Program-made: the position numbers and the translations under genes
Shown: in pieces, positions 17,849 through 34,165 of the stretch
Layout: every line of letters begins with the position of its first letter
Numbering within the stretch: position 1 is the first letter of the stretch
The notes under the pieces: model-generated
What the model was told of the DNA's origin: nothing
The model's input: the letters and a program-made list of their open reading frames with translations, nothing else
Databases searched by the model: none
Origin: Halorutilales archaeon Cl-col2-1
GTDB taxonomy: Archaea > Halobacteriota > Halobacteria > Halobacteriales > Afararchaeaceae
NCBI GenBank assembly: GCA_041891055.1
Contig: CP169074.1
Span: 768,001 to 832,000 of the forward strand
DNA length: 64,000 nt
Direction: 5' to 3'

Positions 17849-17891
17849 CCGTGTATATAGTTATTTGGCTCTAGGTTTACAAGGACGTAAC

Positions 17892-18329
17892 ATGACAGAC
17901 GTATATAACGCGACGGTCGAGGTCACTGTCCCCGTCTATCCGACCGAGGTCGAGGAGAAGGTCAGAGACTGTGTCCTGAATCTGTTCCCCGATGCCGATA
18001 GCCGGACTGTCGAGACGGATGAGGGAGACGCCCCGAGTGAGATAAGAGCGACGACACACTCGGTTGAGGGTCTGAGGCAAGCCGTTGAGGAGAAGTACAT
18101 AAACGACGCCGTCAACTCCGCCCTCTCCGACAGTGTCAAAGGGAGGAAGATAGAGTTCGACCTGAGCAAGCAGGCGGCGTGTGTCGGACGTCTCAACATA
18201 GAGGTCGGCGGACACGAGCTAGGCTCCTTACACGTCGAGATTACGTCGAAGACGCCGTACGACGTCGTAGATTACATCGCTCCACGAGAGGAAGAAGACG
18301 AAAAAGACGGTCACGACACGACCGAGTAG
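17892..18329 (+). CDS. DUF54 / UPF0201 RNA-binding-fold protein
   Basis: VYPTEVEEKV...NLFP and F.LSKQAA..G motifs. Confidence 0.85.
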   Translation: MTDVYNATVEVTVPVYPTEVEEKVRDCVLNLFPDADSRTVETDEGDAPSEIRATTHSVEGLRQAVEEKYINDAVNSALSDSVKGRKIEFDLSKQAACVGRLNIEVGGHELGSLHVEITSKTPYDVVDYIAPREEEDEKDGHDTTE

Positions 18330-19819
18330 ACAACAGGGGTAACGAAGGACTCGACTGCCGACGCAAGGACGAAGACGACGAGGAGTCCGACGAGTATCGA
18401 GTAGGCAGTCGTGATCTCGTCGGCTAATTCCTCGATAGACGCTCTTCCTCGAAGGGTTCTCCAGACCTCACGTCCGAGTCGGAGTCCGAGCCCTCCCGTG
18501 ACACCGAGGGCAGGTATCTCTAAGACTCCGTGGGGAGCCAGAAGGGCTACGAGCGAGGTAAACCCAAGGGGAGCCGTCGACCCGAGCCTGACACCGAGTA
18601 TTCCTCCGATCACCGCTCCGTTGTACCACAGACTCACGAGAGTTGGGACGCCGACAGCGAGACCCGAGAAAGTCTGTGAGAAGCCGACTAGCCAGTTGTT
18701 GGCACTTATCTCGAAGAAGGTTCCGACTGGATTCCGGAACACGCGTGACGACTCCTCAGGTGGCTCCATAACGACCTCGATTCCGGCTGTCGCGTCTAAG
18801 CCGTTGACGACTCCGACGCCGAAGACACCGAGACTCACGGATACGAGTAGGGGATACGACCTTACGAAGACCGCCGTCTCGGAGAGACCGTCCCTCACCG
18901 AGTCGAGGAGACGTGTCGAGGCTGATCTCTCGACACCGACGACGGATGTCTCGCGGCTGTACGTCTCACCCGAGTAGAGGCTCGTCTTGGTGATGTCGAG
19001 GAAGGGAACTGCACCGAGCATCACTACGAGAGTAGCAACCGTAGTCGCCGAGACGAGGCTCAGAAGAGCCGATAAGCCGAAAACGACCGAGTAGACCACC
19101 ACGGCTACGATGAGATAGACAGCCGTCTCGACGGGCGCTGAGGTGACGAAGCCGAGGTTCTTCCGGAGAGCACCGACGGCATCCGCCGAGTCTACTACCA
19201 CTGCCTGTGGGGCGAATACGAAGAGGAGATGGACTCCGAGAGACGAGACGAGCCAGACGGGGACGATAAGTAACGCGGCTGGGGTGGGGAGAAGAGACAC
19301 CAAGCCTCCGAAGACAAACACGAGAAGTAGTTCTAAGCCGGCTTCGAGACAGAAGAGGAAAAAGAGACTGAGATAGTCTGAGGCTCCACCCCTGAGACCG
19401 TCCTCGACGGGCGACTCCGAGGACGTGAGAACGCCGTAAGCCGCGTTTATCTTCGCCGCCGAGACAACTGAGTTGACGAAAGCGAAGAGTACGACGCCGG
19501 CGACTAGGCTGAGTCCCAGAACAGCCGCAGACTCGGGTGTAACGAGAACAGAGAAGGTCTGGGTGAGAGAGTCAGCAGCTGTCTGGTTTAGCTCTCCGTC
19601 GGAGACTAACGTAGAGGTGTCGAATCCCTCGATTTCCGACTCGAACTCGTCTATACGTCCCTGTGACGACAGAATCAGGTATGACGCCACGATGCCTATG
19701 ACGGGAACTACACGCGCCACGACACCCGACGCCGCTGTCATCATGTAGAACGGGAGTATGTCGGATGTCGACCCCGAGAGAGCCGAGTAAGCCGACCTGA
19801 GAGAGACAGTCACTCGCAT
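18311..19819 (-). CDS. Integral membrane protein with C-terminal SpoIIM (DUF95) domain
   Basis: Many TM helices; ISANNW, NG...G, PHGVLEIPA and ES.VTP motifs. Confidence 0.85.
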   Translation of the reverse strand: MRVTVSLRSAYSALSGSTSDILPFYMMTAASGVVARVVPVIGIVASYLILSSQGRIDEFESEIEGFDTSTLVSDGELNQTAADSLTQTFSVLVTPESAAVLGLSLVAGVVLFAFVNSVVSAAKINAAYGVLTSSESPVEDGLRGGASDYLSLFFLFCLEAGLELLLVFVFGGLVSLLPTPAALLIVPVWLVSSLGVHLLFVFAPQAVVVDSADAVGALRKNLGFVTSAPVETAVYLIVAVVVYSVVFGLSALLSLVSATTVATLVVMLGAVPFLDITKTSLYSGETYSRETSVVGVERSASTRLLDSVRDGLSETAVFVRSYPLLVSVSLGVFGVGVVNGLDATAGIEVVMEPPEESSRVFRNPVGTFFEISANNWLVGFSQTFSGLAVGVPTLVSLWYNGAVIGGILGVRLGSTAPLGFTSLVALLAPHGVLEIPALGVTGGLGLRLGREVWRTLRGRASIEELADEITTAYSILVGLLVVFVLASAVESFVTPVVYSVVS

Positions 19820-19876
19820 ACTACAATAACTGGAGGTTCGTCACATTAACTTAAGCATAAGCTGTCTCTAACGGGT

Positions 19877-20314
19877 ATGGGAACCGATGACCTGAGATGT
19901 CTCTCAGTCGACGGTGTCGTGGTATTCGACGGCGACCGTGTGGCTCTCATGAAGAGGAACCATCCGCCGCACGAGGGCGACTGGGTTCTCCCCGGCGGCA
20001 TGGTCGAGAGAGACGAGACGGCACGGGAGGCTTGTGAGAGGGAGGTCGAGGAGGAGATAGATATCGAGGTCGAGTCTGAGAAGTTCGTGGGACTCTACGA
20101 CGACCCCGAAAGAGACGAGAGAGGGAACGTCTCTGCGGCGTACGTCTGCCGTCCACTCGACAGGGACGCAGAGCCTAGACCCAAGGAGGAAGCGACAGAG
20201 GTCAAGACGGTCGAAGTAGAAGAGGCTTCGAGTCTCTCTCTCGGATTCGACCACGCCGAGATACTCTCGGACGCCTCTGAGATTGTCTCGGAGACGGAGA
20301 CAGACCCGAGATAG
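19877..20314 (+). CDS. NUDIX hydrolase
   Basis: LPGGMVERDETAREACEREVEEE; RD.RG; L.FDH. Confidence 0.9.
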   Translation: MGTDDLRCLSVDGVVVFDGDRVALMKRNHPPHEGDWVLPGGMVERDETAREACEREVEEEIDIEVESEKFVGLYDDPERDERGNVSAAYVCRPLDRDAEPRPKEEATEVKTVEVEEASSLSLGFDHAEILSDASEIVSETETDPR

Positions 20315-20361
20315 TTAGGGATATATGTCCAACCCCGATAGGGACATACGAGAAAAACAAA

Positions 20362-21936
20362 ATGGACGCTGGCTGGGAGACCTTCTTCGAGAGCGTGCCC
20401 GACGCTATGGTGCTCATAGATGAGGACGGTGTAATACGTGAGATCAACTCGTCAGCCGAGGAGATGTTCGGGTACGGGACGGACGAGTTAGTGGGGGAGA
20501 AAGTGGAGAGGCTGGTTCCCGAGTCGCAGAGGGAGGAACACGTCGGTCTGAGAGACGAGTACATAGAAGAGCCACAGACACGTCCCATGGGTACGGGTCT
20601 GAGTATCTTCGGTGTCACGAAACACGGAGACGAGATACCCATAGATATCGCTCTCAGCCCTGTCGAGACAGACGACGACTTCCGTGTTATGGCGGCGATA
20701 AGGGACAGGAGCCGTATCAAACGCCTGGAAGACGAGGTGAGGAAGAACGAGAGAAGTCTCAGGTCTCTACACGCGTACGCCTCCGACTTCGACCTCAGCC
20801 TCGACGACAAGATACACGAGGTTCTACGTATAGGTTCGGAGAGACTCGGCATGTCTGAGGCGTATCTCACGTCCGTCGAGATCGAAGGAAGAACAGTCGG
20901 AAAGTCGTCCTCCGACGGCGACCACGACGCGCTACTGTGTGAGGGACTCCGCGACGGCGTCGAGGTCGTAGCACACGAAGGTGACAGCGATGAAATATAC
21001 GAGGGACGTCGTCTTCCGCTCTCAGGAACATACTGTAAGAGGCTACTGGAGACAGACGACGACTTCCTCGGTGTGGAAGATATTCCCGAGGAGTGGGGCG
21101 AGGACAGCATGGCTTACTCAAAGCTGGGTCTCAGGAGTTACATAGGCACGGAGGTCAAGGTCAGAGACCGTCTCTACGGGACTCTGTGTTTCGGAGACCC
21201 GGAACCGGGAGACGAGATAAACGACTCCGAGAGATCCTTCGTGCGTCTGCTTTCGAGATGGCTTGGCTACGAGATAGAGAGGAACGAGCGCGAGAAACAG
21301 ATCAAGATATTCGACAGGGTTCTGAGACACAATCTCCGGAACAAGATGAACGTCATACTTGGATACGCCGATGTCATCGAACAGAAAGCCCCGGAGGAAG
21401 TCGAGGACGAGGTTCACGAGATTATCAGAACCGGTGAGAGTATTCTATCGACGAGCGAGAAGGCAAGGGAGCTAAGTGAGACCATACTCGGGGAAGAGTC
21501 AGCGACCCAGACCGTAGATGTCTCCGGAACAGTCGAGAGTGCGGTCGAGGAAACTGACGAGAGGTACGACGCCGAGATAAAGACCGAGATACAGCCCGAC
21601 GTGACCGCAGTCGCCGATCCCGACATAGACAAGGCTGTCTCGGAGGTGATACAGAACGCCGTGGTGCACAACGACGGTGATCCCGAGGTCGAAGTCAGAG
21701 TCGATACCTACGGTGAGACAGCCGAAATAGAGATCTCGGACAACGGCGAGGGAATACCCGACGACGAGGTTGAGGTTCTAACGGGTGAGAGGGAGATACA
21801 GTCGCTCTACCACGGAAGCGGTCTCGGGCTCTGGCTCGTCCACTGGATAGTCAGGAAGTCACGCGGTGAGATAGAGTTCAACACAGACGACGGAACCACG
21901 ATACGTATGAGGCTAGAGGCGAAGTCGGAGACCTAG
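20362..21936 (+). CDS. PAS-GAF sensor histidine kinase
   Basis: FixL-like PAS (EMFGY...EEH...RPMG); GAF (YC...SYIG...GTLCF); RHNLRNKM; HGSGLGL. Confidence 0.9.
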   Translation: MDAGWETFFESVPDAMVLIDEDGVIREINSSAEEMFGYGTDELVGEKVERLVPESQREEHVGLRDEYIEEPQTRPMGTGLSIFGVTKHGDEIPIDIALSPVETDDDFRVMAAIRDRSRIKRLEDEVRKNERSLRSLHAYASDFDLSLDDKIHEVLRIGSERLGMSEAYLTSVEIEGRTVGKSSSDGDHDALLCEGLRDGVEVVAHEGDSDEIYEGRRLPLSGTYCKRLLETDDDFLGVEDIPEEWGEDSMAYSKLGLRSYIGTEVKVRDRLYGTLCFGDPEPGDEINDSERSFVRLLSRWLGYEIERNEREKQIKIFDRVLRHNLRNKMNVILGYADVIEQKAPEEVEDEVHEIIRTGESILSTSEKARELSETILGEESATQTVDVSGTVESAVEETDERYDAEIKTEIQPDVTAVADPDIDKAVSEVIQNAVVHNDGDPEVEVRVDTYGETAEIEISDNGEGIPDDEVEVLTGEREIQSLYHGSGLGLWLVHWIVRKSRGEIEFNTDDGTTIRMRLEAKSET

Positions 21937-23543
21937 AGATACCTGCCGCGCTCCTCTATCTCGTCGACCTGTCGGTGTACCTTGTCGGAGTCGTCCCACG
22001 TATTCGAGTACCCCGACCAGAAGGCGTCCATGATTTCGTCTGAGTCTGAGACGGTGCCTTCGAGAGTACGTCTCAGGACGTGGACGTCCATGCCGAAGTC
22101 CTCGGTGTCGCGTGTCGCGTACGACAGTCCAAAGTCTATGAGATAGATACGTCCGTCGGAGGACCTCACCATGTTACGTGTCGTGGGATCGCCGTGTGCG
22201 ATTCCCGACGAGTGGAGACACGCGAGATGACGCCCTATTTCCTCGGCGTCTTCGGGGTCTATCTCGGAGTCAGAGAGGTCAGATGCGTCGGTTCCTATCC
22301 GCTCGGAACGGAGTTCGAAGCCGTGACTGTCGACATCTAAGACCGCGGGTGTCGGAACCCCCGCCTTCCGTGCCTCCGAGGTGAGACGTGCCTCCGAGAC
22401 AGTCCTCTTTCTCCTTAGTTCGGCGTCGAGACTCGGGCTTCTGTAGGACTTCGGGAGTCTCGTCTTGGTGACCTCAGACTCGTCGAACTTGACGACCGCC
22501 TCGGCACCGTGTATCATGCTGTCATCTCGTCTGGCCTCCTTGACTCCGTCCCTCCAGACGACATCGACCTCGTCGGGTCTCCAGTCGGGCTTGACGTGGC
22601 TATCCTTTACATCGACCGTCTCGCCCGCTTGGTACATCATATATCCGAGTACTGCGATCATACCCGCGTTGTCGGAGAGATACTCGGGTTCGGGCGACTG
22701 GAACTCCGCGCCTCTCTCGTCACACATCTCTTCGAGCATCTCCCTGAGACGTGAGTTACGCGAGACGCCTCCTCCGACCACAAGCGTATCCTTCCCCGTG
22801 AGAGCGAGAGCGCGTTCACAGACCTCTGTGAGCATGCCGAAGACGTTCTCCTGTACCGAGTAGGCGAGCCTCTCGACTTCGACTCCGTCGTCGTACTTCT
22901 TCTGTGCAGCATTTATTATCCCCGAGAAAGAGAAGTCCATTCCCTTGACTGTGTAGGGGAGCTCAACGTACTCCGAGTCGTCAACCGACGACGCGAGTTC
23001 CTCTATCTTGGGTCCTCCGGGATGGGAGAGACCGACGTGGCGACCGAACTTGTCGAGCGAGTTGCCGACGCCGGTGTCCATAGTCTCTCCGAGTATACGG
23101 TAACGTCCGTTTCTGTAGGTCGTCACCATAGTGTTCGCGCCCGCGGCGTCGAGTGCCACGGGGTCTTCGAAGCCCGACGAGAACCTTCCCATCTCTATAT
23201 GTGCGACTGTGTGGTTGACTCCTACGAGAGGAACGTCAAGTCTGAGCGAGAGTGCGCGTGCGGCGGTCGCCGTGACTCTGAGGCAGGGTCCCAAGCCTGG
23301 ACCACGTGAGAAGGCGACGGCGTCTATACTGTCCTCGGAGACGTCTTCGAGTGCCTCGTCTATCACGCCGGGGATAGCCGACGAGATGTGTTCGCTCGCC
23401 TCTCTCGGATGTATGCCTCCCTCATCGGGGACATACGGGTCGGTCACGAGGCTGAGTACGTCTCCGTCCCCGTCCCCAGCCTCGGAGTCGAAGACCGCCG
23501 CACTCGCGTTCCACGCCGTACCCTCTATGCCTACGATCCTCAT
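21933..23543 (-). CDS. kae1: Bifunctional Kae1 (t6A synthase) / Bud32 kinase
   Basis: GIEGTAW, GGIHPREA, GPGLGPCL, HxxAH, DNAGMIA; C-terminal kinase HGDPTTRN, IDFGL, RGRY. Confidence 0.95.
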   Translation of the reverse strand: MRIVGIEGTAWNASAAVFDSEAGDGDGDVLSLVTDPYVPDEGGIHPREASEHISSAIPGVIDEALEDVSEDSIDAVAFSRGPGLGPCLRVTATAARALSLRLDVPLVGVNHTVAHIEMGRFSSGFEDPVALDAAGANTMVTTYRNGRYRILGETMDTGVGNSLDKFGRHVGLSHPGGPKIEELASSVDDSEYVELPYTVKGMDFSFSGIINAAQKKYDDGVEVERLAYSVQENVFGMLTEVCERALALTGKDTLVVGGGVSRNSRLREMLEEMCDERGAEFQSPEPEYLSDNAGMIAVLGYMMYQAGETVDVKDSHVKPDWRPDEVDVVWRDGVKEARRDDSMIHGAEAVVKFDESEVTKTRLPKSYRSPSLDAELRRKRTVSEARLTSEARKAGVPTPAVLDVDSHGFELRSERIGTDASDLSDSEIDPEDAEEIGRHLACLHSSGIAHGDPTTRNMVRSSDGRIYLIDFGLSYATRDTEDFGMDVHVLRRTLEGTVSDSDEIMDAFWSGYSNTWDDSDKVHRQVDEIEERGRYL

Positions 23544-23570
23544 TAATTAGAATAGAAGTACAGAGACTGT

Positions 23571-23717
23571 CTACTCGAACTCGGTGTATCCGCATCTGCC
23601 ACAGTGTTTCCTGTCGCCGTGGTCGGCAAGGAAGGTGTCGCCGCATCTCGGGCAGTTCTCCTTCGTCTCCTCGACGCCGTCGTCTGTGACGTCGTAGTAG
23701 TCGTGTCTCTGTGTCAT
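23571..23717 (-). CDS. rps27ae: 30S ribosomal protein S27ae
   Basis: Translated by hand (below the ORF-track cutoff): [48 protein letters not shown]. Zinc ribbon in the conserved position after rps24e. Confidence 0.95.
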
Positions 23718-23718
23718 A

Positions 23719-24027
23719 CTACGCTTCCGCCTCCTCCTCGCCTTCCTCGGCTCCTATCTTGTTACGTTCGAGCATGTACTCCTCCTCGACCTCGCGCGCC
23801 GCCTCGGCGGAGTCATAGACCTTGGCGTAGCCGACAGTCTCGTTGATGCCTCTCTTCGTCTTCATGCTGTGGACGACGACCTCATCACTCGACTTTCCGA
23901 GCTTCGCCGTGAGAGAGTCACGTACTGCGAGCCTCGAAGGCGTCTCCTCGTCGTGTACTATGCTGAACTCTATCTCCTTCCTGTCAAGGAGACTGTTTTC
24001 CTCCTCGTCGGTGATATCTATCTGCAT
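23719..24027 (-). CDS. rps24e: 30S ribosomal protein S24e
   Basis: ENSLLDRKE...TPSR...GYAKVY...YMLERN. Confidence 0.95.
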
Positions 24028-24109
24028 ATTTAGTTAAAAGTGAGTACGTCGCTTAAGAATTACGAAGGACGCAGGGAATGAGAGATTCCCATTGGAGAAG
24101 CCATATCAA

Positions 24110-24388
24110 TCAGTCAGCGGTATACGCCCCGCCGCGGCGCTTAATCCGAGCGACGACTAAGCGGGATTCGTCCTGCTGAAAAGACACAGACAGCCGGTAC
24201 TGACCGACTCGTATCTTCTTGTGAGGGCTATTCTGGAGAGGCTCGCCGTAGTCCGGAGGATCACGCCACGGTGAGTCTACTATCTCGTCGAGTTTGTCGA
24301 GGATCTGGTCTTGGTCTTTAGCTTCGAGATCCCCGAGGTCGTCTTGGGCTTTCTTAGAGAGCTCCCACGTCCAACCGCTGTCACTCAT
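24110..24388 (-). CDS. RelE/ParE family toxin
   Basis: WELSKKAQDDL...KIRVGQYRL...RRGGAY; basic residues; start overlaps the antitoxin stop. Confidence 0.85.
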   Translation of the reverse strand: MSDSGWTWELSKKAQDDLGDLEAKDQDQILDKLDEIVDSPWRDPPDYGEPLQNSPHKKIRVGQYRLSVSFQQDESRLVVARIKRRGGAYTAD

Positions 24389-24671
24389 CCTCGTCTTGTG
24401 AGTCTGTGTCTGTACCGAAGTTCTGACGTGCTTCATCGGATCCCATAGTCTCTCCCTCACGTACGTCTTCCTCGGCTTGTAGAAGGGCTATAAGCTCGTC
24501 CCTGTCGAAAGTCGGATTTTCGACTGCATCTCTAAGTGTGTACCGTATGAACTCACTACGGCTGTTGAAGCCCCGTCCCTGCCATGCTTCGTCTACCTCG
24601 TCGAGAAACGACTGAGTAGTCTTGAAGTTGACAGTGACTATCTCATCATCTTCCGTAGTTGCTTTAGACAT
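24381..24671 (-). CDS. Ribbon-helix-helix (CopG-like) antitoxin
   Basis: VTVNFK...LDEVD....GFNSRSEFIRY.LRDAV; acidic tail; directly upstream of the RelE gene. Confidence 0.85.
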   Translation of the reverse strand: MSKATTEDDEIVTVNFKTTQSFLDEVDEAWQGRGFNSRSEFIRYTLRDAVENPTFDRDELIALLQAEEDVREGETMGSDEARQNFGTDTDSQDEDE

Positions 24672-24704
24672 ATTATAGTAATACGTGCGTCTTACTGATA
24701 GTAA
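24671..24704. promoter_or_regulatory. Putative TA autoregulatory operator (two palindromes) over the antitoxin promoter
   Basis: TATTA-tag-TAATA (24671-24683) and TTACT-gat-AGTAA (24692-24704), both containing ATAGTAA. Confidence 0.5.
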
Positions 24705-24781
24705 AACCTGTTCCCTGTCCTAGAAATCTCGGCTACTACTGATTAAGTCAGCCGCCTGCGGAGAAGGACAATGACAAGACC

Positions 24782-25333
24782 TCAGGCGAGTTCGAGGAGT
24801 GACTCCATCTCGTCTGTGTCCTCGATATCCATACGTCTCATGAGAGAGACAGCCTCGTCTTTCTTCTCCTCGGTGACATCGACGAATACCATGCCCTCTC
24901 CGGGCTGTCCGTAGACTACGGTGTCTCCGATGTCTGCCTTGGCTATCACCGGGAGCGTGGCGAGATCCTCCTCGCCGTCGACGTCGACACGGATAGCGCC
25001 GTCGGATTCGAGTCCCTCACACAGACCGTTTAGGAGATCGCGCGTGACGGTTCCCGCGGGGTTCTCGACTTCTAACGAGTTGGGGATTTCGAGCCACTTC
25101 TCGACGATCTCTTCGTCGACCTCGTGTCTCTCGGTCATTCCGTCGACTACAGAGACGTCGGGGAGTATCCCCTCGACTAAGAAGTGGTAGGTGACTATGT
25201 CGCCGACAGTTATGAACCTCGGGTCTCGGTCTCCGTCTCTACCCTCGACAGCCTCGTCTATCCCCGTGTAGACAGGACCGAGGGGCTCTTTTAGCTCAGA
25301 TCTCAGATCCTTCGGAAGCTCTATGAGTGGCAT
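24782..25333 (-). CDS. GTP-dependent dephospho-CoA kinase (DUF359)
   Basis: LK.PLG, TVGDIVT, VDG.T.R, NPAG, VDGEEDLA and YGQP.EG; conserved position after spt4. Confidence 0.9.
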   Translation of the reverse strand: MPLIELPKDLRSELKEPLGPVYTGIDEAVEGRDGDRDPRFITVGDIVTYHFLVEGILPDVSVVDGMTERHEVDEEIVEKWLEIPNSLEVENPAGTVTRDLLNGLCEGLESDGAIRVDVDGEEDLATLPVIAKADIGDTVVYGQPGEGMVFVDVTEEKKDEAVSLMRRMDIEDTDEMESLLELA

Positions 25334-25334
25334 C

Positions 25335-25523
25335 TTAACGAACCTTAAGGGCGAACTTCCCCTTCATGTCTACGTCCATCTTGTCGGCTATCTCGCTCTT
25401 CTCGGGGTCTGTGATTACGACGTATCCCGACCAGTCCTCGCTCAGGTTGGTCGACATACAGACGGGGCACTCGTCTCCCTCTACGACCCTGTGACACTCA
25501 CGGCAGACCATTACTTCCGACAT
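25335..25523 (-). CDS. spt4: Transcription elongation factor Spt4 (RpoE2)
   Basis: CRECH...CPVC...SEDWSG...DPEKSEIA...G.FALKVR. Confidence 0.95.
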   Translation of the reverse strand: MSEVMVCRECHRVVEGDECPVCMSTNLSEDWSGYVVITDPEKSEIADKMDVDMKGKFALKVR

Positions 25524-26107
25524 TACTGATCAGGAGTCTGTGTCTCGGCATCTGTCTCGGAGGCGTCCCTCTCTGCGTGGAGCCATCCGTGTTTTCCGAG
25601 AGCGACCTGTCGCGCTGTGAGTCCTATCTTCGACTCACGCGGGTTTCTCTCGTCTATCGATACTGCGACTATACGTACACGTATAGGGTCGTCGACTCCG
25701 AGCGCCTGGTTCGACTCGTTCGAGACGAGCCTCTGGTTCGACTCGTCGTACGAGTAGTAGTCCTCGCTTATCTGAGAGACGTGGAGGAGACCGTCTATGG
25801 GCCCTATGCCGACGAAGGCACCGAAGCTGACGACTTCTGTGACCTTTCCGTCGACGACCTCCTGCATCGTGGGATCGAAAACGAGAGCATCGAATGTCGC
25901 CTCGTAGAAGACCCCGGCTTCGTTGTAGAGTATATGCCCCTCTCCGACGTCCTCGACTTCCGTGACTGCAACTATCGAACCAAGATCCTCGTCCATCCTT
26001 CCTTCGAGCTTGTCCTGAAGAAGCTCAAGTATGAGCTCCGTGTCTACGTCTCCGAGCCTCTCAGGAGGCACTCTTACCGTGTCAACGAGTCTGACGCGTT
26101 TGTACAT
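25523..26107 (-). CDS. rpoE1: DNA-directed RNA polymerase subunit E' (Rpo7)
   Basis: S1 domain FGAFVGIGPIDGLLHVSQI; KIGLT.RQ..LGK. Confidence 0.95.
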   Translation of the reverse strand: MYKRVRLVDTVRVPPERLGDVDTELILELLQDKLEGRMDEDLGSIVAVTEVEDVGEGHILYNEAGVFYEATFDALVFDPTMQEVVDGKVTEVVSFGAFVGIGPIDGLLHVSQISEDYYSYDESNQRLVSNESNQALGVDDPIRVRIVAVSIDERNPRESKIGLTARQVALGKHGWLHAERDASETDAETQTPDQ

Positions 26108-26113
26108 TGTTTC

Positions 26114-26554
26114 TTATGGATACCTTATCTGAAGATGACTCCCCTGTCTGAGACGTACCACGCGAACACCCACATCGAGGAGCCTGTCTATAAGCTCTCT
26201 GTCGTTCGTAACTACCGCCGATACCTCGTCGGAGTTCTCCGCTATCTCGACTATGACGTCATCAGTCTTACGTCCCTCGGTCTCGTGTTCTACGACCTCA
26301 CATCTCTCGTTGGCGATTTCGAGACCCATCTCGGCGTCTGTGTCTGAGGTCGCGAGACTCTTGAGTTCGTTCACGACGCCTCTCGGCACCACCGCGACGT
26401 AGCCCCCGACGAGCCTCTCGACCTCGTCGAAGACATCGACTCCGAACTGTGATGGTACCATCAATGCGTTCGTGTCAAAAATCACTTTCTGTCTCCCGGT
26501 GTCCTCATCCTTGTCTTTGTCCCGATCCTCGTCTTGGTCAGAGACGCTTCCCAT
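26114..26554 (-). CDS. PIN-domain protein (Fcf1/Utp24-like)
   Basis: DTNALM, V.NEL, TDD and VTNDREL; conserved position after aIF2-gamma. Confidence 0.9.
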   Translation of the reverse strand: MGSVSDQDEDRDKDKDEDTGRQKVIFDTNALMVPSQFGVDVFDEVERLVGGYVAVVPRGVVNELKSLATSDTDAEMGLEIANERCEVVEHETEGRKTDDVIVEIAENSDEVSAVVTNDRELIDRLLDVGVRVVRLRQGSHLQIRYP

Positions 26555-26563
26555 TCGATCACT

Positions 26564-27769
26564 TTACTTTAGGACTCCGACACCTATGAGACGCCATCTC
26601 GTCCCCATGCGTCGGTTTATCGCCATACGGCTTCCCTGCTTCGCACAGACGGGACGTTTGAGCTTGACCTCAGCCTCGTCGCCCCTCGCGCTCGTGACTG
26701 TCCCGACTGTCGTCGCCGTCCCGACCGAGATCATGAGAGGCTCTCCCGTGTTGATGGGTTCGACCTTCTTGCCCTCGTCCATTCCGACGACACGGTCGAG
26801 GAGGTCAACCTCCATCGTGAACTCGTCGACGACAGGAGGTAACTCGTCGGGGTCTCCCGCTATCTGACCCGCGAGTGAGTCACCCTTAGTGAGCGAGGGG
26901 TCGAGTCCCGTGCCGACACCTATGAGACCTCCGGGTGTTACCTTCTCGACGGGCTCCTCTCCCGCCATTAACGAACGTATCTCGGTCTGTATCGGCTGCC
27001 AGTCTCCGTCACGTTCGACACCGGGACGTACCTCTATCTCGTCTCCCTCCTCGAAGACTCCGCTCGCGAGTGAACCTCCTATGACACCACCTCTGAGACT
27101 GTCGGGCGGCGTTCCGGGTCTGTTGACGTCGAACGAACGCGCGACGAGCATATGAGGTGGGGCGTCGGGGTCACGGTCGGGAGTCGGAATCTCTTCCTGA
27201 ATCGCCTCTATGAGAAGGTCTATGTTGACGTTCTGTTCGGCGCTCACCGGGACGATAGGAGCGTCCTCCGCGACGGTTCCCTCGACGAACTCCTTTATCT
27301 CGTCGTGGCTCTCGACCGCCTCGTCACGTGAGACGAGGTCTATCTTGTTCTGTGCTATGACGATGTTTTCTATACCGATGATGTCGAGAGCCATCAGATG
27401 CTCCTTCGTCTGTGGCTGTGGACATTCATCGTTTGCGCTTATGACGAGAACGGCTCCGTCCATCAGCGATGCGCCCGCGAGCATCGTCGCCATGAGTGTC
27501 TCGTGCCCCGGGGAGTCGACAAACGAGACCTCTCTGAGAACCTCGCTCTCACTCCCATCGGGACATGTCTCCTCTACCGTGTACGACTCGGGAGGATCGA
27601 GATCAGGACAGTTGCGGAAGGTGGCATCAGCGTATCCTAGACGGATAGAGATGCCTCTCTCCATCTCCTCTGAGTGTTCGTCCGTCCATTTACCGCTCAG
27701 AGCCTGGACGAGAGTAGTCTTGCCGTGGTCGACGTGTCCGACGAGTCCTATATTTACTTCTGGTTGCAA
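26564..27769 (-). CDS. eif2g: Translation initiation factor 2 gamma subunit
   Basis: [37 protein letters not shown] and RWRLIG; TTG start. Confidence 0.97.
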
Positions 27770-27850
27770 CTGTTTTATCCTCCGGAAAGGAATCCGTACT
27801 TATATACTTGGAGACGGTTATTAAAGCTTCTCAAAACAGATATTAGGGTG

Positions 27851-30265
27851 TCACCGAGTATCAAGCGCGTCGGCGACCTCGACCGCCCTCACGGTCTCCT
27901 TCACGTCGTGTACTCGGAGTATGTCGGCTCCCCTGAGGGACGCGACGACGTTCGCGGCTAAGCTGGCTTCGAGACGTTCCTCCTTCGGGAGGTCGGTGAC
28001 TCCACGCAAGAACGACTTCCTCGAACAGCCGATCAGAACCGGATAGCCGAGTGACGCGAACTCGTCGGTGCGCGCGAGAACCTCGGCGTCGCCTTCCTTT
28101 CCTTTCCCGAATCCTATACCCGGATCGAGTATTATCTGTTCGTCGTCTATCCCCGAACGCCGTGCCTGTATGACCTTCTCCGAGAGACGGTCTATGACGT
28201 CGTAGACGACGTCGTCGTACTCCGGCTTTGTCCCGGGATCTACGGGTACGTTGACCGAGTCCATCACGACGACTCGGCAGCCTGTCTCGGCTACGACCTG
28301 CCTCATCCCGGGGTCGTCGAGCCCGGTGACATCGTTTACTATCTCGGCTCCCGCCTCGACAGCGCGCCGAGCGACCTCGGGATGTCTCGTGTCTACTGAT
28401 ATCGGAACGTCGACGTCTATCTCGTCGATCACGGGGACGACACGGTCAGCCTCCTCCTCGGGTGGCACGGGTTCGGCTCCGGGACGTGTCGACTCACCCC
28501 CTACGTCGATTATGTCGGCCCCTTCCTTGACTATCTCGTAAGCCCTCTCGACTGCGTCTTCCCTTGCGGCGTACCTTCCTCCGTCGTAGAACGAGTCGGG
28601 CGTGACGTTTAGTATTCCCATGACCTTCGTCTCCGAGTCGTCCTCACCTCTGTCTTCGAGAGCCGGGCTCAGTCTGTGACGGAGATATCCCAGGGTTCGG
28701 TCGTCTTGGGTTATCTTGTCGTACTCTGAGACCGAGGCGGTTAGACGTAGGTCGGTATAGGTCTGAGACCGTGTCTGTGCCCCGGAAGACGGTGACGAGA
28801 CGGAGGAGTGAGACGGCGACACCTCGGCGTCGGAGTCGGAGGCAGTCTGTCTGAGAGCCCTTTCCTCGTTAGGCGTTGTCTCTCTGAGTAAGACGGACGG
28901 ATGTACTGCGTCTCTCGCCTCGGAGATGTCTCGGATGACTCCGTCTGCGTCCTCGACCGAGTCGAAGACCCTCGAAGCCGTATTCGTCTTCCAGAGAGTC
29001 CTCGCCTCGCCGACTGTGAAGATAGATCCCGTCACGAGTACAGCGTCGTCGTCGCCGGCTGAGTCGACGGCTTGCCTGACAGCCTCACGTACGTCTCGGT
29101 GGACTTGTGACTCGACCCCGGCTTCGTCGAATACCTCGGCTACGACTGAGGCGTCCTCTGAACGAGAGGTCGACGGCTCACACGCATAGACACGCCGAGG
29201 CTCGGCTTCGGCTATCTCCGACACGGTTCGGCGTAAGTCCTTGTCCGACATAACACCGAAGACGACGTCGAGGCTCTCGTACTCCAGTGTCTCTTTCGCC
29301 TCTTCGAGTGTCTCGACTGCTGCCTCCGCACCCGCGGGGTTGTGTGCGGACTCAAGTACAACGACGGGGTCGTACTCTACCGCCTCGAAACGTCCGGGCC
29401 AGTCGGCGCGTTCGAGTCCCTGCCTGACCGCGTCGTCGGAGACACCGAGACGGTCGAGGAGACCTAAAGCGACCGCGGCATTCCTCGACTGGTGTTCGCC
29501 CGCTAAGGGTAGACTGACGTCTTCGAGCCGTCTGCGCGAGGATTCGAGACTCAAGGTCTGACGCAGACGTCTGTCGATCTCTCCCGGCTCATATCCGAGA
29601 TCCTTGTCGACGACGCTCAGGCTCGCGTCTCTGTCGTCAGCCATCTCACGTATGACACCGAGCGGATCACCCCGCGCTCCCGTCGAACAGAAGCCGTCCT
29701 CGGGTATTATGTGTCCTATCTCCCACGCTATCTCTTGGGTGTCGTCTCCGAGAACGTCTGTGTGTTCGAGAGACACGGAGGTTACAGCCGCGGCGTCGGC
29801 GTTACACAGGCTCGTGATGTCGTATCTCCCGCCGAGACCCACCTCTAAGACTGCGTAGTCGAGGTCTCTCCTTGCGAACTCGTAGAAAGCCATCACTGTC
29901 GTAGTCTCGAAGAATGTCGGAGCGTCGCCGTCTGCGACCATCTCGTCTACGAGTGGTCTGATCTCCTCGACGAACTCCGCCATAGCCGACTGTGTCATCT
30001 TCGTGCCGTTGATACGTATCCTCTCGCCGAGGTCGACCATATGTGGAGAGGTATAGAGACCGACGTCGTAGCCGTCACGCCGGAGACACGACTCGACCAT
30101 ACGTGCCGTACTTCCTTTCCCGTTCGTTCCCCCGATCTGTATACCGTCGACCTCCTCGTGGGGATCTCCAAGAGCTTCGAGGAGACGTTCCGCCCTCTCG
30201 AAGCCCTCCTTCATCCCGAACCTCCTGAGCCTGAATAGATACTCGATCGCCGCGTCGGGTTCCAT
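27851..30265 (-). CDS. folP: FolC-FolP fusion (folylpolyglutamate synthase + dihydropteroate synthase)
   Basis: FolC: GTNGKGST, YTSPH, EVGLGGR.D, WPGRFE, AHNP. FolP: MGILNVTPDSFYDGG, GGESTRPG, DPGIGFGK, SRKSF, RVHDV. Confidence 0.93.
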   Translation of the reverse strand: MEPDAAIEYLFRLRRFGMKEGFERAERLLEALGDPHEEVDGIQIGGTNGKGSTARMVESCLRRDGYDVGLYTSPHMVDLGERIRINGTKMTQSAMAEFVEEIRPLVDEMVADGDAPTFFETTTVMAFYEFARRDLDYAVLEVGLGGRYDITSLCNADAAAVTSVSLEHTDVLGDDTQEIAWEIGHIIPEDGFCSTGARGDPLGVIREMADDRDASLSVVDKDLGYEPGEIDRRLRQTLSLESSRRRLEDVSLPLAGEHQSRNAAVALGLLDRLGVSDDAVRQGLERADWPGRFEAVEYDPVVVLESAHNPAGAEAAVETLEEAKETLEYESLDVVFGVMSDKDLRRTVSEIAEAEPRRVYACEPSTSRSEDASVVAEVFDEAGVESQVHRDVREAVRQAVDSAGDDDAVLVTGSIFTVGEARTLWKTNTASRVFDSVEDADGVIRDISEARDAVHPSVLLRETTPNEERALRQTASDSDAEVSPSHSSVSSPSSGAQTRSQTYTDLRLTASVSEYDKITQDDRTLGYLRHRLSPALEDRGEDDSETKVMGILNVTPDSFYDGGRYAAREDAVERAYEIVKEGADIIDVGGESTRPGAEPVPPEEEADRVVPVIDEIDVDVPISVDTRHPEVARRAVEAGAEIVNDVTGLDDPGMRQVVAETGCRVVVMDSVNVPVDPGTKPEYDDVVYDVIDRLSEKVIQARRSGIDDEQIILDPGIGFGKGKEGDAEVLARTDEFASLGYPVLIGCSRKSFLRGVTDLPKEERLEASLAANVVASLRGADILRVHDVKETVRAVEVADALDTR

Positions 30266-30359
30266 ACTCAGAAGAGGGTAGTCGTTGCTAAGGCAGTTAC
30301 GGTGTCGGTGTCAGTCTGAGTGTCGTCGTAGTCTCACGGATATACTACAACTGTATGAT

Positions 30360-30545
30360 AAAATACAAAAATTATCGATCATAACAGTAATTCGAGGCGG
30401 CCGGCATCGGCAGGCTATGGACGAGGTGATACCTCGACTCCTTGAGGGCTTCTCCAACCTGCCCACGAAAGGCCAAATTGCCGCCTCCGGGATCTCTGAC
30501 GATCCCTGTACTGTGTTGGAGACGTAGTCCCAAAAAGATGGGGAT
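30360..30545 (-). ncRNA. Candidate structured RNA (multi-stem with alternative or pseudoknot pairing) between folC-folP and purD
   Basis: Nested complementary segments: 30384-89/30509-14, 30394-401/30480-87, 30409-14/30458-63; hairpins 30422-36 and 30489-506; 8-bp 30451-58/30515-22. Minus-strand TATA-like at 30565-72 and U-tract at 30360-71. Confidence 0.55.
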
Positions 30546-30637
30546 TAAGTTTCAGGATAGCATCATTTTAAATTATTAGGTATCGATACGTCTGCGTACA
30601 ACCACCAGATTGATTTAGGCGACAACGTATCTCGCGT

Positions 30638-31918
30638 ATGGACATACTCGTAGTCGGATCGGGCGGACGCGAGCACGCGATCACACGTGCAGTGTCGGAG
30701 TCCGAGAAGGACGTCAGTATCTACGCTGCTGTGACTAACAGGAATCCCGGGATAGAAGAACTCGCCGACGGCATAAGGGAGATCGAGACGGAAGATCCCG
30801 AGGCTGTCGCCGACTACGCCGAGGAGGTCGGTGCCGAGATCGCTGTCGTGGGACCCGAGTCACCGCTTCAGGCGGGAGTCGTCGACGCTCTTGAGGAGAG
30901 AGGTATCTACGGCTTCGGTCCCAGAAAGGAGGAAGCGCGCATAGAGACCGACAAGGCGTGGGCGCGTGAGTTCATGCGCCAAAACGGTATATCCGGCACA
31001 CCCGACTTCGCCGTCTTCTCAGACGTCGACGAGGCGTGTGACTACGTCGACGAGTACGACGGAGACCTGGCTGTGAAGCCTCGTGGACTCACCGGAGGAA
31101 AAGGTGTGAGGGTCACAGGAGACCAGATCACCAAGGAAGAGGCGAAGGAGTACATACGTGACTCGGGCTACGACGAGTTCGTCTTAGAGGAACGTCTCGT
31201 CGGAGAGGAGTTCACTCTCCAGGCTTTCGTAGCCGACGGCGAGGTACGTCCGACACCCGCCGTCCAGGATCACAAACGCGCCTACGAGGGCGACGAAGGA
31301 CCCAACACTGGTGGAATGGGAAGCTACAACGACGCGGGGTATCTCCTGCCTTTCATGACTCAGGAGGAGTACGACGACGCACTCTCTATAATAGAGGAGA
31401 CCGTCGACGCCCTCCCCGAGTATAAGGGGATACTCTACGGACAGTTCATGCTCACCTCGGAGGGTCCTAAGGTCGTCGAGTTCAACGCACGTTTCGGCGA
31501 CCCCGAGGCTATGAACGTACTCCCTATACTCGAAACCGACTTCGTCGATGTACTCGAAGGCGCGCGAGACGGTGACCTGCCTGAGGTCGAGTTCGAGAAG
31601 AAGGCGACTGTCTGTAAGTACGCCGTACCAGAGGGTTATCCCACGAACCCCGAGAGCGGCGCGCGTATAGAGATAGACGAGGGCGACACCGATGCACTCG
31701 TCTACTACGCGAGCGTCGACAAGAGGGACGACACACTCTACACCACGACCTCTAGGTCTCTCGGGGTCGTTGGCGTCGACGGGACGATAGAAGGAGCCGA
31801 GGAGATAGCCGAGGACGCCCTCTCGATACTCGGAGACGGACTCCGTGTGAGACACGACATAGGCAACTCCGAACTGATACAGAGACGTATCGACCACATG
31901 GAGAGTCTGAGACAGTAG
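30638..31918 (+). CDS. purD: Phosphoribosylamine-glycine ligase
   Basis: VGSGGREHA, VGPE.PL..G..D, QDHKRAYEGDEGPNTGGMG and EFNARFGDPE. Confidence 0.97.
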   Translation: MDILVVGSGGREHAITRAVSESEKDVSIYAAVTNRNPGIEELADGIREIETEDPEAVADYAEEVGAEIAVVGPESPLQAGVVDALEERGIYGFGPRKEEARIETDKAWAREFMRQNGISGTPDFAVFSDVDEACDYVDEYDGDLAVKPRGLTGGKGVRVTGDQITKEEAKEYIRDSGYDEFVLEERLVGEEFTLQAFVADGEVRPTPAVQDHKRAYEGDEGPNTGGMGSYNDAGYLLPFMTQEEYDDALSIIEETVDALPEYKGILYGQFMLTSEGPKVVEFNARFGDPEAMNVLPILETDFVDVLEGARDGDLPEVEFEKKATVCKYAVPEGYPTNPESGARIEIDEGDTDALVYYASVDKRDDTLYTTTSRSLGVVGVDGTIEGAEEIAEDALSILGDGLRVRHDIGNSELIQRRIDHMESLRQ

Positions 31919-31926
31919 AGAGAGTA

Positions 31927-32430
31927 ATGAGACGCACTCGGAGGTTCGAGACCCAGTACAACTCGCTGAGGTACTGGACGGAGGCACGACACCCCGTCAG
32001 GGTCGTCGTCAACTACGTCGTGATAGTCTTAGCGAGACACTCCCCGAGTCTGCGTCTCAAGAGCTTCCTACTCCGACTCATAGGCGTCGAACAGGGCGAA
32101 CGCGTCTCGTGGGGTTTAGAGTCGACACCCGATGTCTTCTTCCCCGACCTCATAGAGATAGGAGACGACGTCATAATAGGCTACGACGCCACTATACTCT
32201 GCCACGAGTTCCTGAGACACGAGTGGCGGAAGGGGGAGGTCGTGATAGGAGACGACGTCATGATCGGCGCGAACGTCACCGTCCTTCCCGGAGTCGAGAT
32301 AGGAGACGGAGCCGTTATCGGCGCGAACAGTCTCGTCGACAGGGACGTCGAACCGGGCGAGAAGGTCGTGGGTGTGCCTATAAGTGACAGCTACCAGTCG
32401 GATCACAACGCCAAGAATAAGTCGGAGTAA
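31927..32430 (+). CDS. Hexapeptide-repeat acyltransferase
   Basis: IGDDVIIG and IGDDVMIGANVTVLPGVEIGDGAVIGANS repeats. Confidence 0.9.
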   Translation: MRRTRRFETQYNSLRYWTEARHPVRVVVNYVVIVLARHSPSLRLKSFLLRLIGVEQGERVSWGLESTPDVFFPDLIEIGDDVIIGYDATILCHEFLRHEWRKGEVVIGDDVMIGANVTVLPGVEIGDGAVIGANSLVDRDVEPGEKVVGVPISDSYQSDHNAKNKSE

Positions 32431-32449
32431 TCTCTGTATAGGTCTACTT

Positions 32450-33415
32450 ATGAAAGCTGTCGTTCTGGCGGGCGGTTACGCAACACGTCTCTGGCCCATA
32501 ACCAAGAACCGCGCGAAGCCTCTTCTTCCTCTCGGCGGAAAGCCCATAGTAGACTACATACTCGACCCTCTCGAGGACGAGGACGCTGTGTCCGAGGTAT
32601 TCGTGAGCACTAACCAGAGGTTCGCCGACGACTTCGAGGAACACATAGAGTCGGAGGGCTATGAGAAAGCGACCGTCGCAGTCGAGCCCACGACCTCGGA
32701 GGACGAGAAGCTCGGAACTATAGGAGCTCTCGCCGACCTCGTAGAGCGTGAGTCGATAGACGAGGACACCGTCGTGATAGCCGGCGACAACCTCTTCTCG
32801 TTCGAGGTCAACGACTTCATAGAGTTCTTTGACTCTAAGGGATCGGCGTGTATCGCCTCGTACGACGTCGGGTCGCGCGAGGACGCAAAGCAGTACGGTC
32901 TCGTGGACGTCGAGGGCGGACAGGTCGTCGACTTCCAGGAGAAGCCCGACGAGCCCAAGAGTACACTCGTCTCGATAGCGTGTTATGCCTTCCCCGCAGA
33001 CACTCTGCGTCTCTTAGACGAGTACCTCAGGGGTGACAACAACCCCGACGCTCCCGGATTCTTCATCGAGTGGCTCCACACACGTGAGAACGTATACTCG
33101 TACGTCTTCGACGGCGCGTGGTTCGACGTCGGAACCCCCGACTCGTACCTCGACGCCAACTCTTACGTGCTCGACGGAAGCGTAATCGAGGACGGCGCGG
33201 TGATCGAGAACACCCAGGTCGGCGAAGACGTCTATGTGATGTCAGGCGCCGAGATACATGACTCCGAGATAGAGAACTCGATAGTATTCGAGAACGCCCG
33301 GATAGACGACTGTACCGTCAGACATTCGATAGTCGACAGGGAAACCGTCTTAGACGGGGTCGACTTCAACAACGCTCTGGTCGGAGAACACTCACACCTC
33401 AACTCCGAGGACTAA
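32450..33415 (+). CDS. Sugar-phosphate nucleotidyltransferase (NDP-sugar synthase)
   Basis: MKAVVLAGGYATRLWP.T...AKPLL, GDN, F.EKP, WFDVGT; C-terminal left-handed beta-helix repeats. Confidence 0.92.
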   Translation: MKAVVLAGGYATRLWPITKNRAKPLLPLGGKPIVDYILDPLEDEDAVSEVFVSTNQRFADDFEEHIESEGYEKATVAVEPTTSEDEKLGTIGALADLVERESIDEDTVVIAGDNLFSFEVNDFIEFFDSKGSACIASYDVGSREDAKQYGLVDVEGGQVVDFQEKPDEPKSTLVSIACYAFPADTLRLLDEYLRGDNNPDAPGFFIEWLHTRENVYSYVFDGAWFDVGTPDSYLDANSYVLDGSVIEDGAVIENTQVGEDVYVMSGAEIHDSEIENSIVFENARIDDCTVRHSIVDRETVLDGVDFNNALVGEHSHLNSED

Positions 33416-34047
33416 GACTCGACGTAGACTCTTTTGGCGTTCTTCGCCTCGACATCATCGCCCTCGTAACGCAGTCTGGTGCCGTCGTCGGTGATAAACG
33501 CCGTGATCTCGTAGCTCCTACCGTCTATGTCGAGGGTCTCACCTACGACTACCGAGTAGTCTCCCGGGAGCCTGACCTTCGTGCCCTCGGAGTCGCCCTC
33601 GGAGTGTACGGTGACATCGACGTTGACGTTGTCGACGGTACGTGTCCAGACTGTCTCAACCTCGTCGGCAGTCGCAGACTCGACACGTTTAGTCGTCTCG
33701 GTTCCCTGGGTGTCTTCTTCTGTGACCTCTACACTCGTGACCTCGACGCCGAAGATACCCTCGTCGGACTCAAGGACGAACTCGTCGCCGACCTCTACGT
33801 ACTCATCCGACTCCATCGGCGCGTGGGTCGAGAAGCTGTCCTCGCCCTGGCTCACGACGACTCGTCTCTCAACCGTCTCAGGCTTCTGTACCTTGACCTT
33901 ATGTACGTGTCCACACTCGGTACATTTCACGGTAGCCTGTGAGTCCTCCTTGAGGACGACGTGGGGCGTCCTTCCGCACGCGGGACAGTCGACGACTACG
34001 TCGGGATCAGTGTCAGACGTCTCGTCACGTCCGTGTTCTTGTTCCAT
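33412..34047 (-). CDS. Archaeal Zn-finger protein (HVO_0476-like)
   Basis: CPACG...H.VLK...V.CTECGHVH and VVSQGE.S motifs. Confidence 0.8.
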   Translation of the reverse strand: MEQEHGRDETSDTDPDVVVDCPACGRTPHVVLKEDSQATVKCTECGHVHKVKVQKPETVERRVVVSQGEDSFSTHAPMESDEYVEVGDEFVLESDEGIFGVEVTSVEVTEEDTQGTETTKRVESATADEVETVWTRTVDNVNVDVTVHSEGDSEGTKVRLPGDYSVVVGETLDIDGRSYEITAFITDDGTRLRYEGDDVEAKNAKRVYVES

Positions 34048-34165
34048 ATCCGAGATTGTGTCTTGTGGTGCATAAGTGACGTGGTGAGAAGGGTTTCCAG
34101 ATAAGGTCATCCGCTCGGACGTCAAAGCAAAAAGCACAAGGTAGACGTCCGAGACTGTTAAGTAA

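Follow-up and report, generated by a model that had tools for sequence, protein, structure and literature searches.

Among the described systems closest to a folded RNA encoded between folate and purine genes are the ZTP (pfl) and THF riboswitches, which are bacterial folate/purine sensors and included in Rfam. With respect to small guide RNAs, in archaeal H/ACA guides the lower stem is immediately followed on its 3' side by an ACA (ANA) box and the upper stem contains a K-turn or K-loop, the usual distance between pocket and box being 15 nt, and C/D box sRNAs are characterized by a C box (RUGAUGA), a D box (CUGA) and guide spacers of approximately 12 nt. Genus-limited intergenic sRNAs, which are small, independently transcribed and of narrow range, have been reported from Haloferax RNA-seq. 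Known structured ncRNA families specific to archaea are few. According to PMC8241225, the fluoride riboswitch of Thermococcus is the only experimentally determined natural archaeal riboswitch. The accessible part of the literature on haloarchaeal riboswitches, structured RNAs and CMfinder describes no element such as the one presented below, supplementary sRNA lists of haloarchaeal transcriptome papers being a place that could contain a member, and the motif strings of the element retrieved only unrelated mammalian primer lists.

The window, a stretch of 64,000 nt from the genome of Halorutilales archaeon Cl-col2-1 (G000), contains a gap of 372 bp (30266-30637) between a folC-folP fusion gene (folCP; 27851-30265, minus strand; Pfam Mur_ligase_M, Mur_ligase_C and Pterin_bind) and purD (30638-31918, plus strand; Pfam GARS_N, GARS_A and GARS_C), both of which are neighbours outside the RNA. 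For this gap a sequence-only reading had proposed a structured RNA with switch-like alternative pairing, to be understood either as a folate/purine-sensing attenuator for folC-folP or as an independent ncRNA of ~185 nt. The folded element is confirmed as a real observation, and of the two interpretations the independent ncRNA is supported and the attenuator is not. We consider it quite probable that ~30360-30545 on the minus strand is a free-standing small RNA gene (~150-190 nt) of a rare Halobacteriales family outside Rfam, the product of which would act in trans.

The folded element in its intergenic region

All six pairings proposed for the region are exact reverse complements (30384-89/30509-14, 30394-401/30480-87, 30409-14/30458-63, 30422-27/30431-36, 30489-94/30501-06 and 30451-58/30515-22). 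Equally present, on the minus strand, are a TATA-like TTTAAAAT (30565-30572) and an oligo-U tract UUUUUGUAUUUU (30360-30371), the element sharing its strand with folCP, the start of which follows 95 nt downstream. The RNA would be transcribed from its own TATA box, with a putative start near 30545, and would end at the oligo-U tract, a candidate archaeal terminator marking the RNA 3' end. An AT-rich imperfect inverted repeat ACTGTATGAT...ATCATAACAGT (30350-30388, listed irrespective of strand), which overlaps the U-tract and the 3' strand of the candidate outer stem P1, is unchanged in G001, the only other species of the genus; judged from its letters it could serve to bind a protein or form a terminator hairpin.

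Closer to the genes, TTAG-type boxes are found at 30288-30293 and 30613-30618, ~25-26 nt before the ATG of folCP and purD, respectively, an arrangement which suggests that both genes might give rise to leaderless transcripts from their own promoters. The purD box differs in G001 in one base at 30619, and a tandem repeat of CGGTGT units (30294-30311) upstream of folCP shows a one-unit difference between G000 and G001 or metagenome run X2.

The minimum free energy of 30350-30580 is −80.1 kcal/mol for the plus strand (z −4.59, none of 200 dinucleotide shuffles as good) and −73.3 kcal/mol for the minus strand (z −2.95, 1 of 200 shuffles as good). Single stems in the window alone stay at chance level, with ~0.4 perfect 8-bp pairings per 230 nt expected by estimate, and the fold goes beyond chance because homologues elsewhere support P2 (30394-30401/30480-30487), P3 (30409-30414/30458-30463) and the CGAGG/CCUCG hairpin. 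Such chance-level stems, and a sister-species conservation that is weak when taken alone, would allow for a fold arisen by chance in a divergent promoter region with an AT/GC mosaic; the covariation of the homologues refutes this reading, compensatory changes having occurred in at least five other genera, and we give it practically no credence.

Between G000 and G001 a single substitution (30512 T>C) is found in 30343-30578, and the flanking 143 nt of intergenic DNA contain eight differences, including a 6-nt repeat-unit indel. Within the 17-kb syntenic block, however, the divergence of the two genomes is uneven, no more than one difference being found in 512 of the 16,923 windows (229 nt each), and therefore conservation in the sister species is by itself weak evidence. 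Over the 17 kb of this block (~16900-34100) the mean divergence is 6.6%, with long identical runs such as one of 255 nt (23629-23883); the uneven divergence is consistent with recombination between lineages, as far as can be judged from the two sequences. Four metagenome DNA runs provided two further strains without a change in 30343-30578, whereby the contigs of X2 resemble G001 and X1 represents a third strain. Two diverged contigs of X4 break off at 30373 and 30378, where the depth rises, a hint that diverged X4 strains converge on identical sequence from ~30344. The locus is stable across at least three strains of the genus.

The element also contains two of the rare GGCC sites of the window (30399 and 30471), as had been remarked before. 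Only 13 such sites occur in the 64 kb (8168, 11183, 22533, 25800, 28517, 29397, 30399, 30471, 32493, 53639, 53723, 54709 and 60176), compared with ~404 expected from base composition. Contig C1 holds 592 GGCC in 1.94 Mb (0.31/kb versus ~6/kb expected from the composition of the window) and contig C2 (116 kb) 0.95/kb, so that the depletion in G000 is approximately 20- to 30-fold. Such a depletion suggests a long-standing pressure from a GGCC-specific restriction system. Genes for tRNAs, RNase P RNA and SRP RNA contain 40 (~7%) of the 592 sites on C1, and the persistence of two sites in the element speaks for constraint in this lineage; other constrained RNAs may be flagged by non-coding GGCC clusters, of which ~20 are unexplained.

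Relatives in other haloarchaea and the conserved core

A BLAST search with the 221-nt element against 40 relatives produced short GC-rich chance hits only, and model R1, built for the plus strand with one stem off by one base, gave two weak hits in 41 genomes, both inside long ORFs. The minus-strand model R2 recovered in 151 genomes one hit, in G141 (E 0.006 per genome), which alone is not significant; within G141's own family 1 of 19 genomes matched. The G141 hit is intergenic and antisense to two Laminin_G_3 genes, has a 19-mer, a 10-mer and the hairpin loop in common with the window and differs from it compensatorily in the stems. When a strict pattern composed of the letters shared by G141 and the window was scanned over genome contigs with one genome per species, six stretches were found, three bacterial, which is about the chance expectation, and three haloarchaeal, the latter in Haloplanus litoreus, Halorientalis brevis and an uncultured Halobacteriales MAG, which is G141 itself.

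The core alignment A5, with its structure checked pair by pair, was turned into model R3, which is built from the window and four other sequences. Positions 30393-30488 of the window match R3 over its full length with 100.2 bits, a value that is high by construction because R3 was built partly from the window; independent members score 34-64 bits. Haloplanus litoreus and Halorientalis brevis reach 89.6 and 85.5 bits. At E<=0.1, R3 finds matches in at least 7 of the 151 genomes of the order (G000, G001, G141, G063, G088, G147 and G018), with 60.7 and 60.1 bits for two loci in G063, 55.2 for G088, 34.1 for G147 and 25.6 for G018, the last of which falls within an ORF of 434 aa that matches Lar_N and was judged false. 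G283, a congener of Haloplanus litoreus, was added by a stricter pattern and scores 64.1 bits with R3. Among 401 high-quality genomes there are at least seven carriers (G000, G001, G063, G088, G263, G283 and G405); the stricter pattern itself matched only four of the 401, because its minimum gap of 45 excludes the shorter-spaced G000, G001 and G263. A looser pattern, matching in 181 of the 401 genomes and nearly always in coding GC-rich DNA, was dropped as a count. Of the ~1,200 first-look candidates in each genome, the search with R3 scored the best 25, and the family may therefore be more frequent than these counts suggest. The family spans at least four GTDB families. In its own genome (G000) the element is single-copy, not present in the many copies of a dispersed repeat.

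The family core (minus strand, 30393-30488; defined by the R3 match and the pairs of A7, the alignment of ten rows described below) is arranged as a closing stem P2, an asymmetric internal loop, the stem P3 and a three-way junction, from which a variable hairpin and a second hairpin with the loop N-R-Y-C-A, P3a, emerge. In P2 the 5' strand GAGGCGGC (30480-30487) is the exact complement of the 3' strand GCCGCCUC (30394-30401), and all eight pairs change on both sides among the members. The 5' strand of the internal loop (30464-30479; A5, A7) ends with CUUUCGUG (30471-30464), part of the motif CUUUCGUGG, which is identical in nine of the ten A7 rows, G147 reading AUUUCGGUGG; this near-invariant side of the loop faces GAY-N-CCG on the other. 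The P3 5' strand GGCAGG (30458-30463) pairs with 30409-30414, is extended downward by a G.G mismatch (30464/30408) followed by two pairs (30465-66/30406-07), and is replaced compensatorily in the two G063 copies by GGCGCG/CGUGCC and GGUAUG/CAUACC. Next, 30437-30457 contains the junction strand UUG together with a hairpin region of variable length, insert columns in both A5 and A7, the hairpin having 13 nt in the window and up to ~30 nt in other members. The P3a hairpin CGAGG-UAUCA-CCUCG (30422-30436) changes on both sides in all five stem pairs around an invariant loop CA. The remaining stretch, 30402-30421, comprises the junction strand UCCAUAG (YYCANNG), the P3 3' strand and the 3' loop strand GAUGCCG (GAY-N-CCG), with invariant columns in A5 and A7. 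Near-invariant letters are found in CUUUCGUGG, in the UG after P3, in the CA ending the hairpin loop, in YYCANNG before the P3 3' strand and in GAY-N-CCG.

Alignment A7 has ten rows with nine distinct sequences, all with E<=2.4e-6. Standard pairs occupy 94.2% of its 189 pair cells, a proportion which drops to 29.1-48.6% after a shift of the partners by 1-3 columns; both sides change in 15 of the 21 pairs (8/8 in P2, 5/5 in P3a and two in P3), and the covariation score was reached by none of 500 shuffles, figures to be read with the provision that A7 was fitted to R3's own structure, which favours that structure, that five of the rows built R3 and that the sequences are related. As far as aligned sequences can tell, the stems are shown to covary around loop and junction letters that remain fixed. 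A full-length R3 match combined with covarying P2, P3 and P3a, as would characterize a new family, was thus found, and the homologues and covariation which a genuine structured RNA would leave behind exist in nine distinct sequences. The G141 copy alone folds no better than shuffles (z −0.44).

The lengths of the homologous cores are 96, 112, 109, 96, 111, 114, 110, 113 and 107 nt. They differ by other than multiples of three, and because of these differences the core is considered not to be coding. This bears on a plus-strand small protein gene of 36 codons (ATG 30417 to TAG 30527), an open frame with acidic, halophile-like composition and the best codon score of the local frames, in which the sole difference between G000 and G001 (30512) is a synonymous third-position change. 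Its score of −0.04 per codon, however, ranks near the 5th percentile among real genes, Pfam and NCBIfam gave no match, the best tblastn relative (G016, E 0.01) is not credible, being antisense inside a 330-aa ORF, and one of the GGCC sites could be removed synonymously, yet persists; with the core lengths and the covarying stems added, such a protein has hardly any probability.

The GGGAUC/GAUCCC hairpin 5' of the core (30489-30506, minus strand) is exact in the window and specific to the genus, with no counterpart in G141, Haloplanus, Halorientalis, G063 and G088. The candidate outer stem P1 (ACAGUA, 30509-30514 with 30384-30389, minus strand) is not established: in no member are candidate outer stems better than shuffles (in G000, 175 of 300 shuffles are as good), and the G001 substitution 30512 T>C turns an outer-stem A-U into G-U on the minus strand. 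The 8-bp crossing pairing (30451-58/30515-22) is without counterpart in G141. Hence of the multi-stem structure drawn in the sequence-only reading, the homologues retain P2, P3 and the CGAGG/CCUCG hairpin; the other three pairings, including the crossing one on which the idea of a switch-like alternative was based, are absent or unsupported in other members. A pseudoknot between UGAC after P2 and a GUCA loop, complementary in four of four positions in only three of nine distinct sequences, is not claimed.

Gene neighbourhoods, putative transcript ends and distribution

At the eight loci examined, G283 not being among them, the neighbours are different each time: folCP and purD; two Laminin_G_3 genes (G141); a short-chain dehydrogenase and a thermosome gene; Lrp-AsnC and GvpO (one G063 copy); DUF4382; SprT and Cas6; and an exosortase-like (archaeosortase) and a TP_methylase gene; at the Halorientalis locus, the three flanking ORFs tested had no Pfam match. 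The P3 stems of the two G063 paralogues (C1:726689-726798 and C1:2203959-2204072) differ from each other, each being compensated internally. The only HgcC-like signal, weak and unrelated to the element, lies ~0.9 kb away from one of these copies (L178:517-637, 33.1 bits compared with a gathering threshold of 50, E 1.8e-4). The adjacency of folCP and purD is restricted to G000 and G001 among 30 purD loci, and at the other loci among the eight examined no Pfam-identifiable folate or purine neighbour is present, some of the flanking ORFs having no Pfam match.

These neighbourhoods bear on the reading as a cis-acting riboswitch or attenuator in a long folC-folP 5' leader, in which a folate or purine ligand would shift the multi-stem fold against a terminator-like hairpin with U-tract. 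The position of the element on the folCP strand, 95 nt upstream, the U-tract after the fold, the UACUGU shared by the hairpin at 30350-30388 and the outer stem, and the existence of the 8-bp alternative pairing would fit such a device. However, folate and purine neighbours are missing elsewhere, within the limits of Pfam as given above; the next downstream gene is on the opposite strand, thus convergent, at three of the eight loci (G141, Haloplanus and G063b); and neither the alternative pairing nor the outer stem nor the GGGATC hairpin is conserved. Same-strand, functionally related genes recurring across species, as expected for a riboswitch or leader, were not found at the eight loci, nor was a conserved alternative expression-platform pairing. 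Moreover, Rfam riboswitches gave no match at E<=10, folCP would have a promoter of its own in the TTAG box ~26 nt before the ATG, with the same geometry at purD, and a covariance search with R1 upstream of purD found no hit in 83 purD loci from relatives and metagenomes, whereby the closest purD in JGI metagenomes was 70-73% identical and no near relatives were gained. Because the neighbours differ and several are convergent, a cis role tied to folate/purine genes is not supported, and the folate/purine-sensing attenuator, which would require such neighbours beyond G000 and G001, appears very improbable. The RNA would accordingly not be expected to sense folate or purine metabolites in cis; being upstream of folCP on the same strand, it may have read-through effects on folCP. 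The case cautions against reading function from the neighbourhood of one genome, the folate/purine setting being here an accident of the lineage.

The free-standing RNA gene, in turn, agrees with the covarying family, the unrelated neighbourhoods, the often convergent next gene and T-runs at six of nine loci. These runs (T4-T5) follow 22-43 nt downstream of the core and are missing at Halorientalis, G063b and G147; upstream A-runs, the corresponding signal for the opposite sense, were seen at one of nine loci. In G141, Halorientalis and G063b, TTAG/TTTA-type boxes precede the core at a distance of 20-60 nt. On the modelled strand of A7, eight A.C cells, which would be G-U on the opposite strand, are counted versus four G-U cells. 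The choice of the minus strand, for which the sequence-only reading had invoked G-U pairs, therefore stands in so far as the TATA box, the U-tract and the T-runs fit, but not on the pairing argument, A.C outnumbering G-U; because the mismatch counts lean to the opposite strand, the assignment rests mainly on the T-runs.

In Haloplanus (g86) and in g33 the family is found in only some of the species, and its rarity and patchiness would also be in keeping with an element that moves horizontally. A link with mobile elements is thus kept under consideration, namely that the RNA belongs to, or was left by, a mobile or selfish element, for instance as the orphan guide or scaffold of a transposon or defence protein. 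Besides the sporadic occurrence (at least 7 of 151 genomes), the two diverged copies in G063, the insertion context which differs at each locus and the location of one copy near Cas6 speak for it. Copy numbers of one to two per genome, with a single one in G000, speak against it, as do the flanking ORFs scanned, among which no transposase, TnpB, IscB, reverse transcriptase or integrase was identified, the searches of plasmids and phages, which gave no match to the element, with no viral contig matching the motif pattern, the missing Rfam match to known element-borne RNAs and the stability of the locus in at least three strains of the genus. We regard a mobile-element origin as unlikely, although somewhat less so than the cis riboswitch.

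As to the mode of action of a free-standing RNA, the invariant unpaired nucleotides could form a docking site for a protein or RNA partner encoded elsewhere, through which the RNA would act in trans. More far-reaching, and put forward only tentatively as a minority expectation, is the proposal that the RNA is the first representative of a functionally new class of RNAs in haloarchaea, with the rigidly conserved loop and junction as binding or catalytic centre and a patchy spread by gene transfer among Halobacteriales. If true, it would work as a small ribozyme, as a sensor acting in trans or as the scaffold of a new RNP, and the two diverged G063 paralogues would hint at specificity variants. 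With covariation, fixed unpaired letters and the cultivable carriers Haloplanus litoreus and Halorientalis brevis at hand, the family offers a tractable entry to a new RNA-protein or RNA-RNA interaction.

Comparison with known RNA families

That the element belongs to no known Rfam family, as suspected initially, was substantiated by a scan of the window with Rfam 15 (4227 models, among them riboswitches, ribozymes, snoRNA-like guides, RNase P and SRP), which at gathering thresholds retrieved only three tRNAs. With the threshold relaxed to E<=10, the region 30200-30700 matched only SNORD50 (17.6 bits versus a threshold of 42, E 0.83) and Pinc (16.4 versus 60), and cmscan of five other member loci showed nothing at the element. 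A tRNA was not found by ARAGORN, and the RNase P RNA and SRP RNA are both located elsewhere in the genome. A Y RNA was dismissed since the TROVE domain (PF05731) is found in none of five carrier genomes, the controls having matched in Deinococcus and Bacteroides. A C/D box sRNA was considered on account of AUGAUGC and CUGA at 30562-30549, and rejected as the two are only 4 nt apart and outside the conserved core. Guiding of rRNA modification via the loop was likewise discarded, none of the 21 genomic complements of CUUUCGUGG being located in 16S or 23S rRNA genes.

In overall shape, the RNA is like archaeal H/ACA guides in that a large internal loop containing conserved letters separates a lower from an upper stem, and the lower stem and 3' loop strand together measure 15 nt, the length which is usual from pocket to box. 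Unlike in H/ACA guides, the top is formed by a three-way junction, not a K-turn or K-loop, and the ACA box is missing: at eight loci no ACA/ANA box follows directly after P2, the sequences there reading GAAUUA, UACGUU, CACGUG, GUCGUG, GACUCG, UCUGAU, GCCUCG and CCAAGU, so that an assignment as H/ACA guide was rejected.

With the ZTP (pfl) and THF riboswitches the RNA shares, in this one genome, a multi-stem structure beside folate and purine genes. It differs from them by the lack of an Rfam match at E<=10 and by members that are elsewhere not beside folate/purine genes; ZTP and THF riboswitches are located upstream of functionally coherent same-strand genes, which the new family is not. The intergenic sRNAs of Haloferax are comparable in small size, narrow taxonomic range and independent transcription, the latter predicted for the new RNA, but the new family is common to at least four GTDB families and has conserved loops and covarying stems, which across these families point to an action through structure and not purely as an antisense RNA. 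HgcC (RF00062, Euryarchaeota) does not match in sequence or structure at the element, in the window and in five member loci, yet resembles the new RNA as a stand-alone, GC-rich, multi-stem intergenic RNA gene without a conserved neighbour, with its own promoter and an oligo-T end, both of which are putative in the new RNA. We regard the RNA family described here as new, and its general kind, the archaeal orphan small RNA, is familiar.
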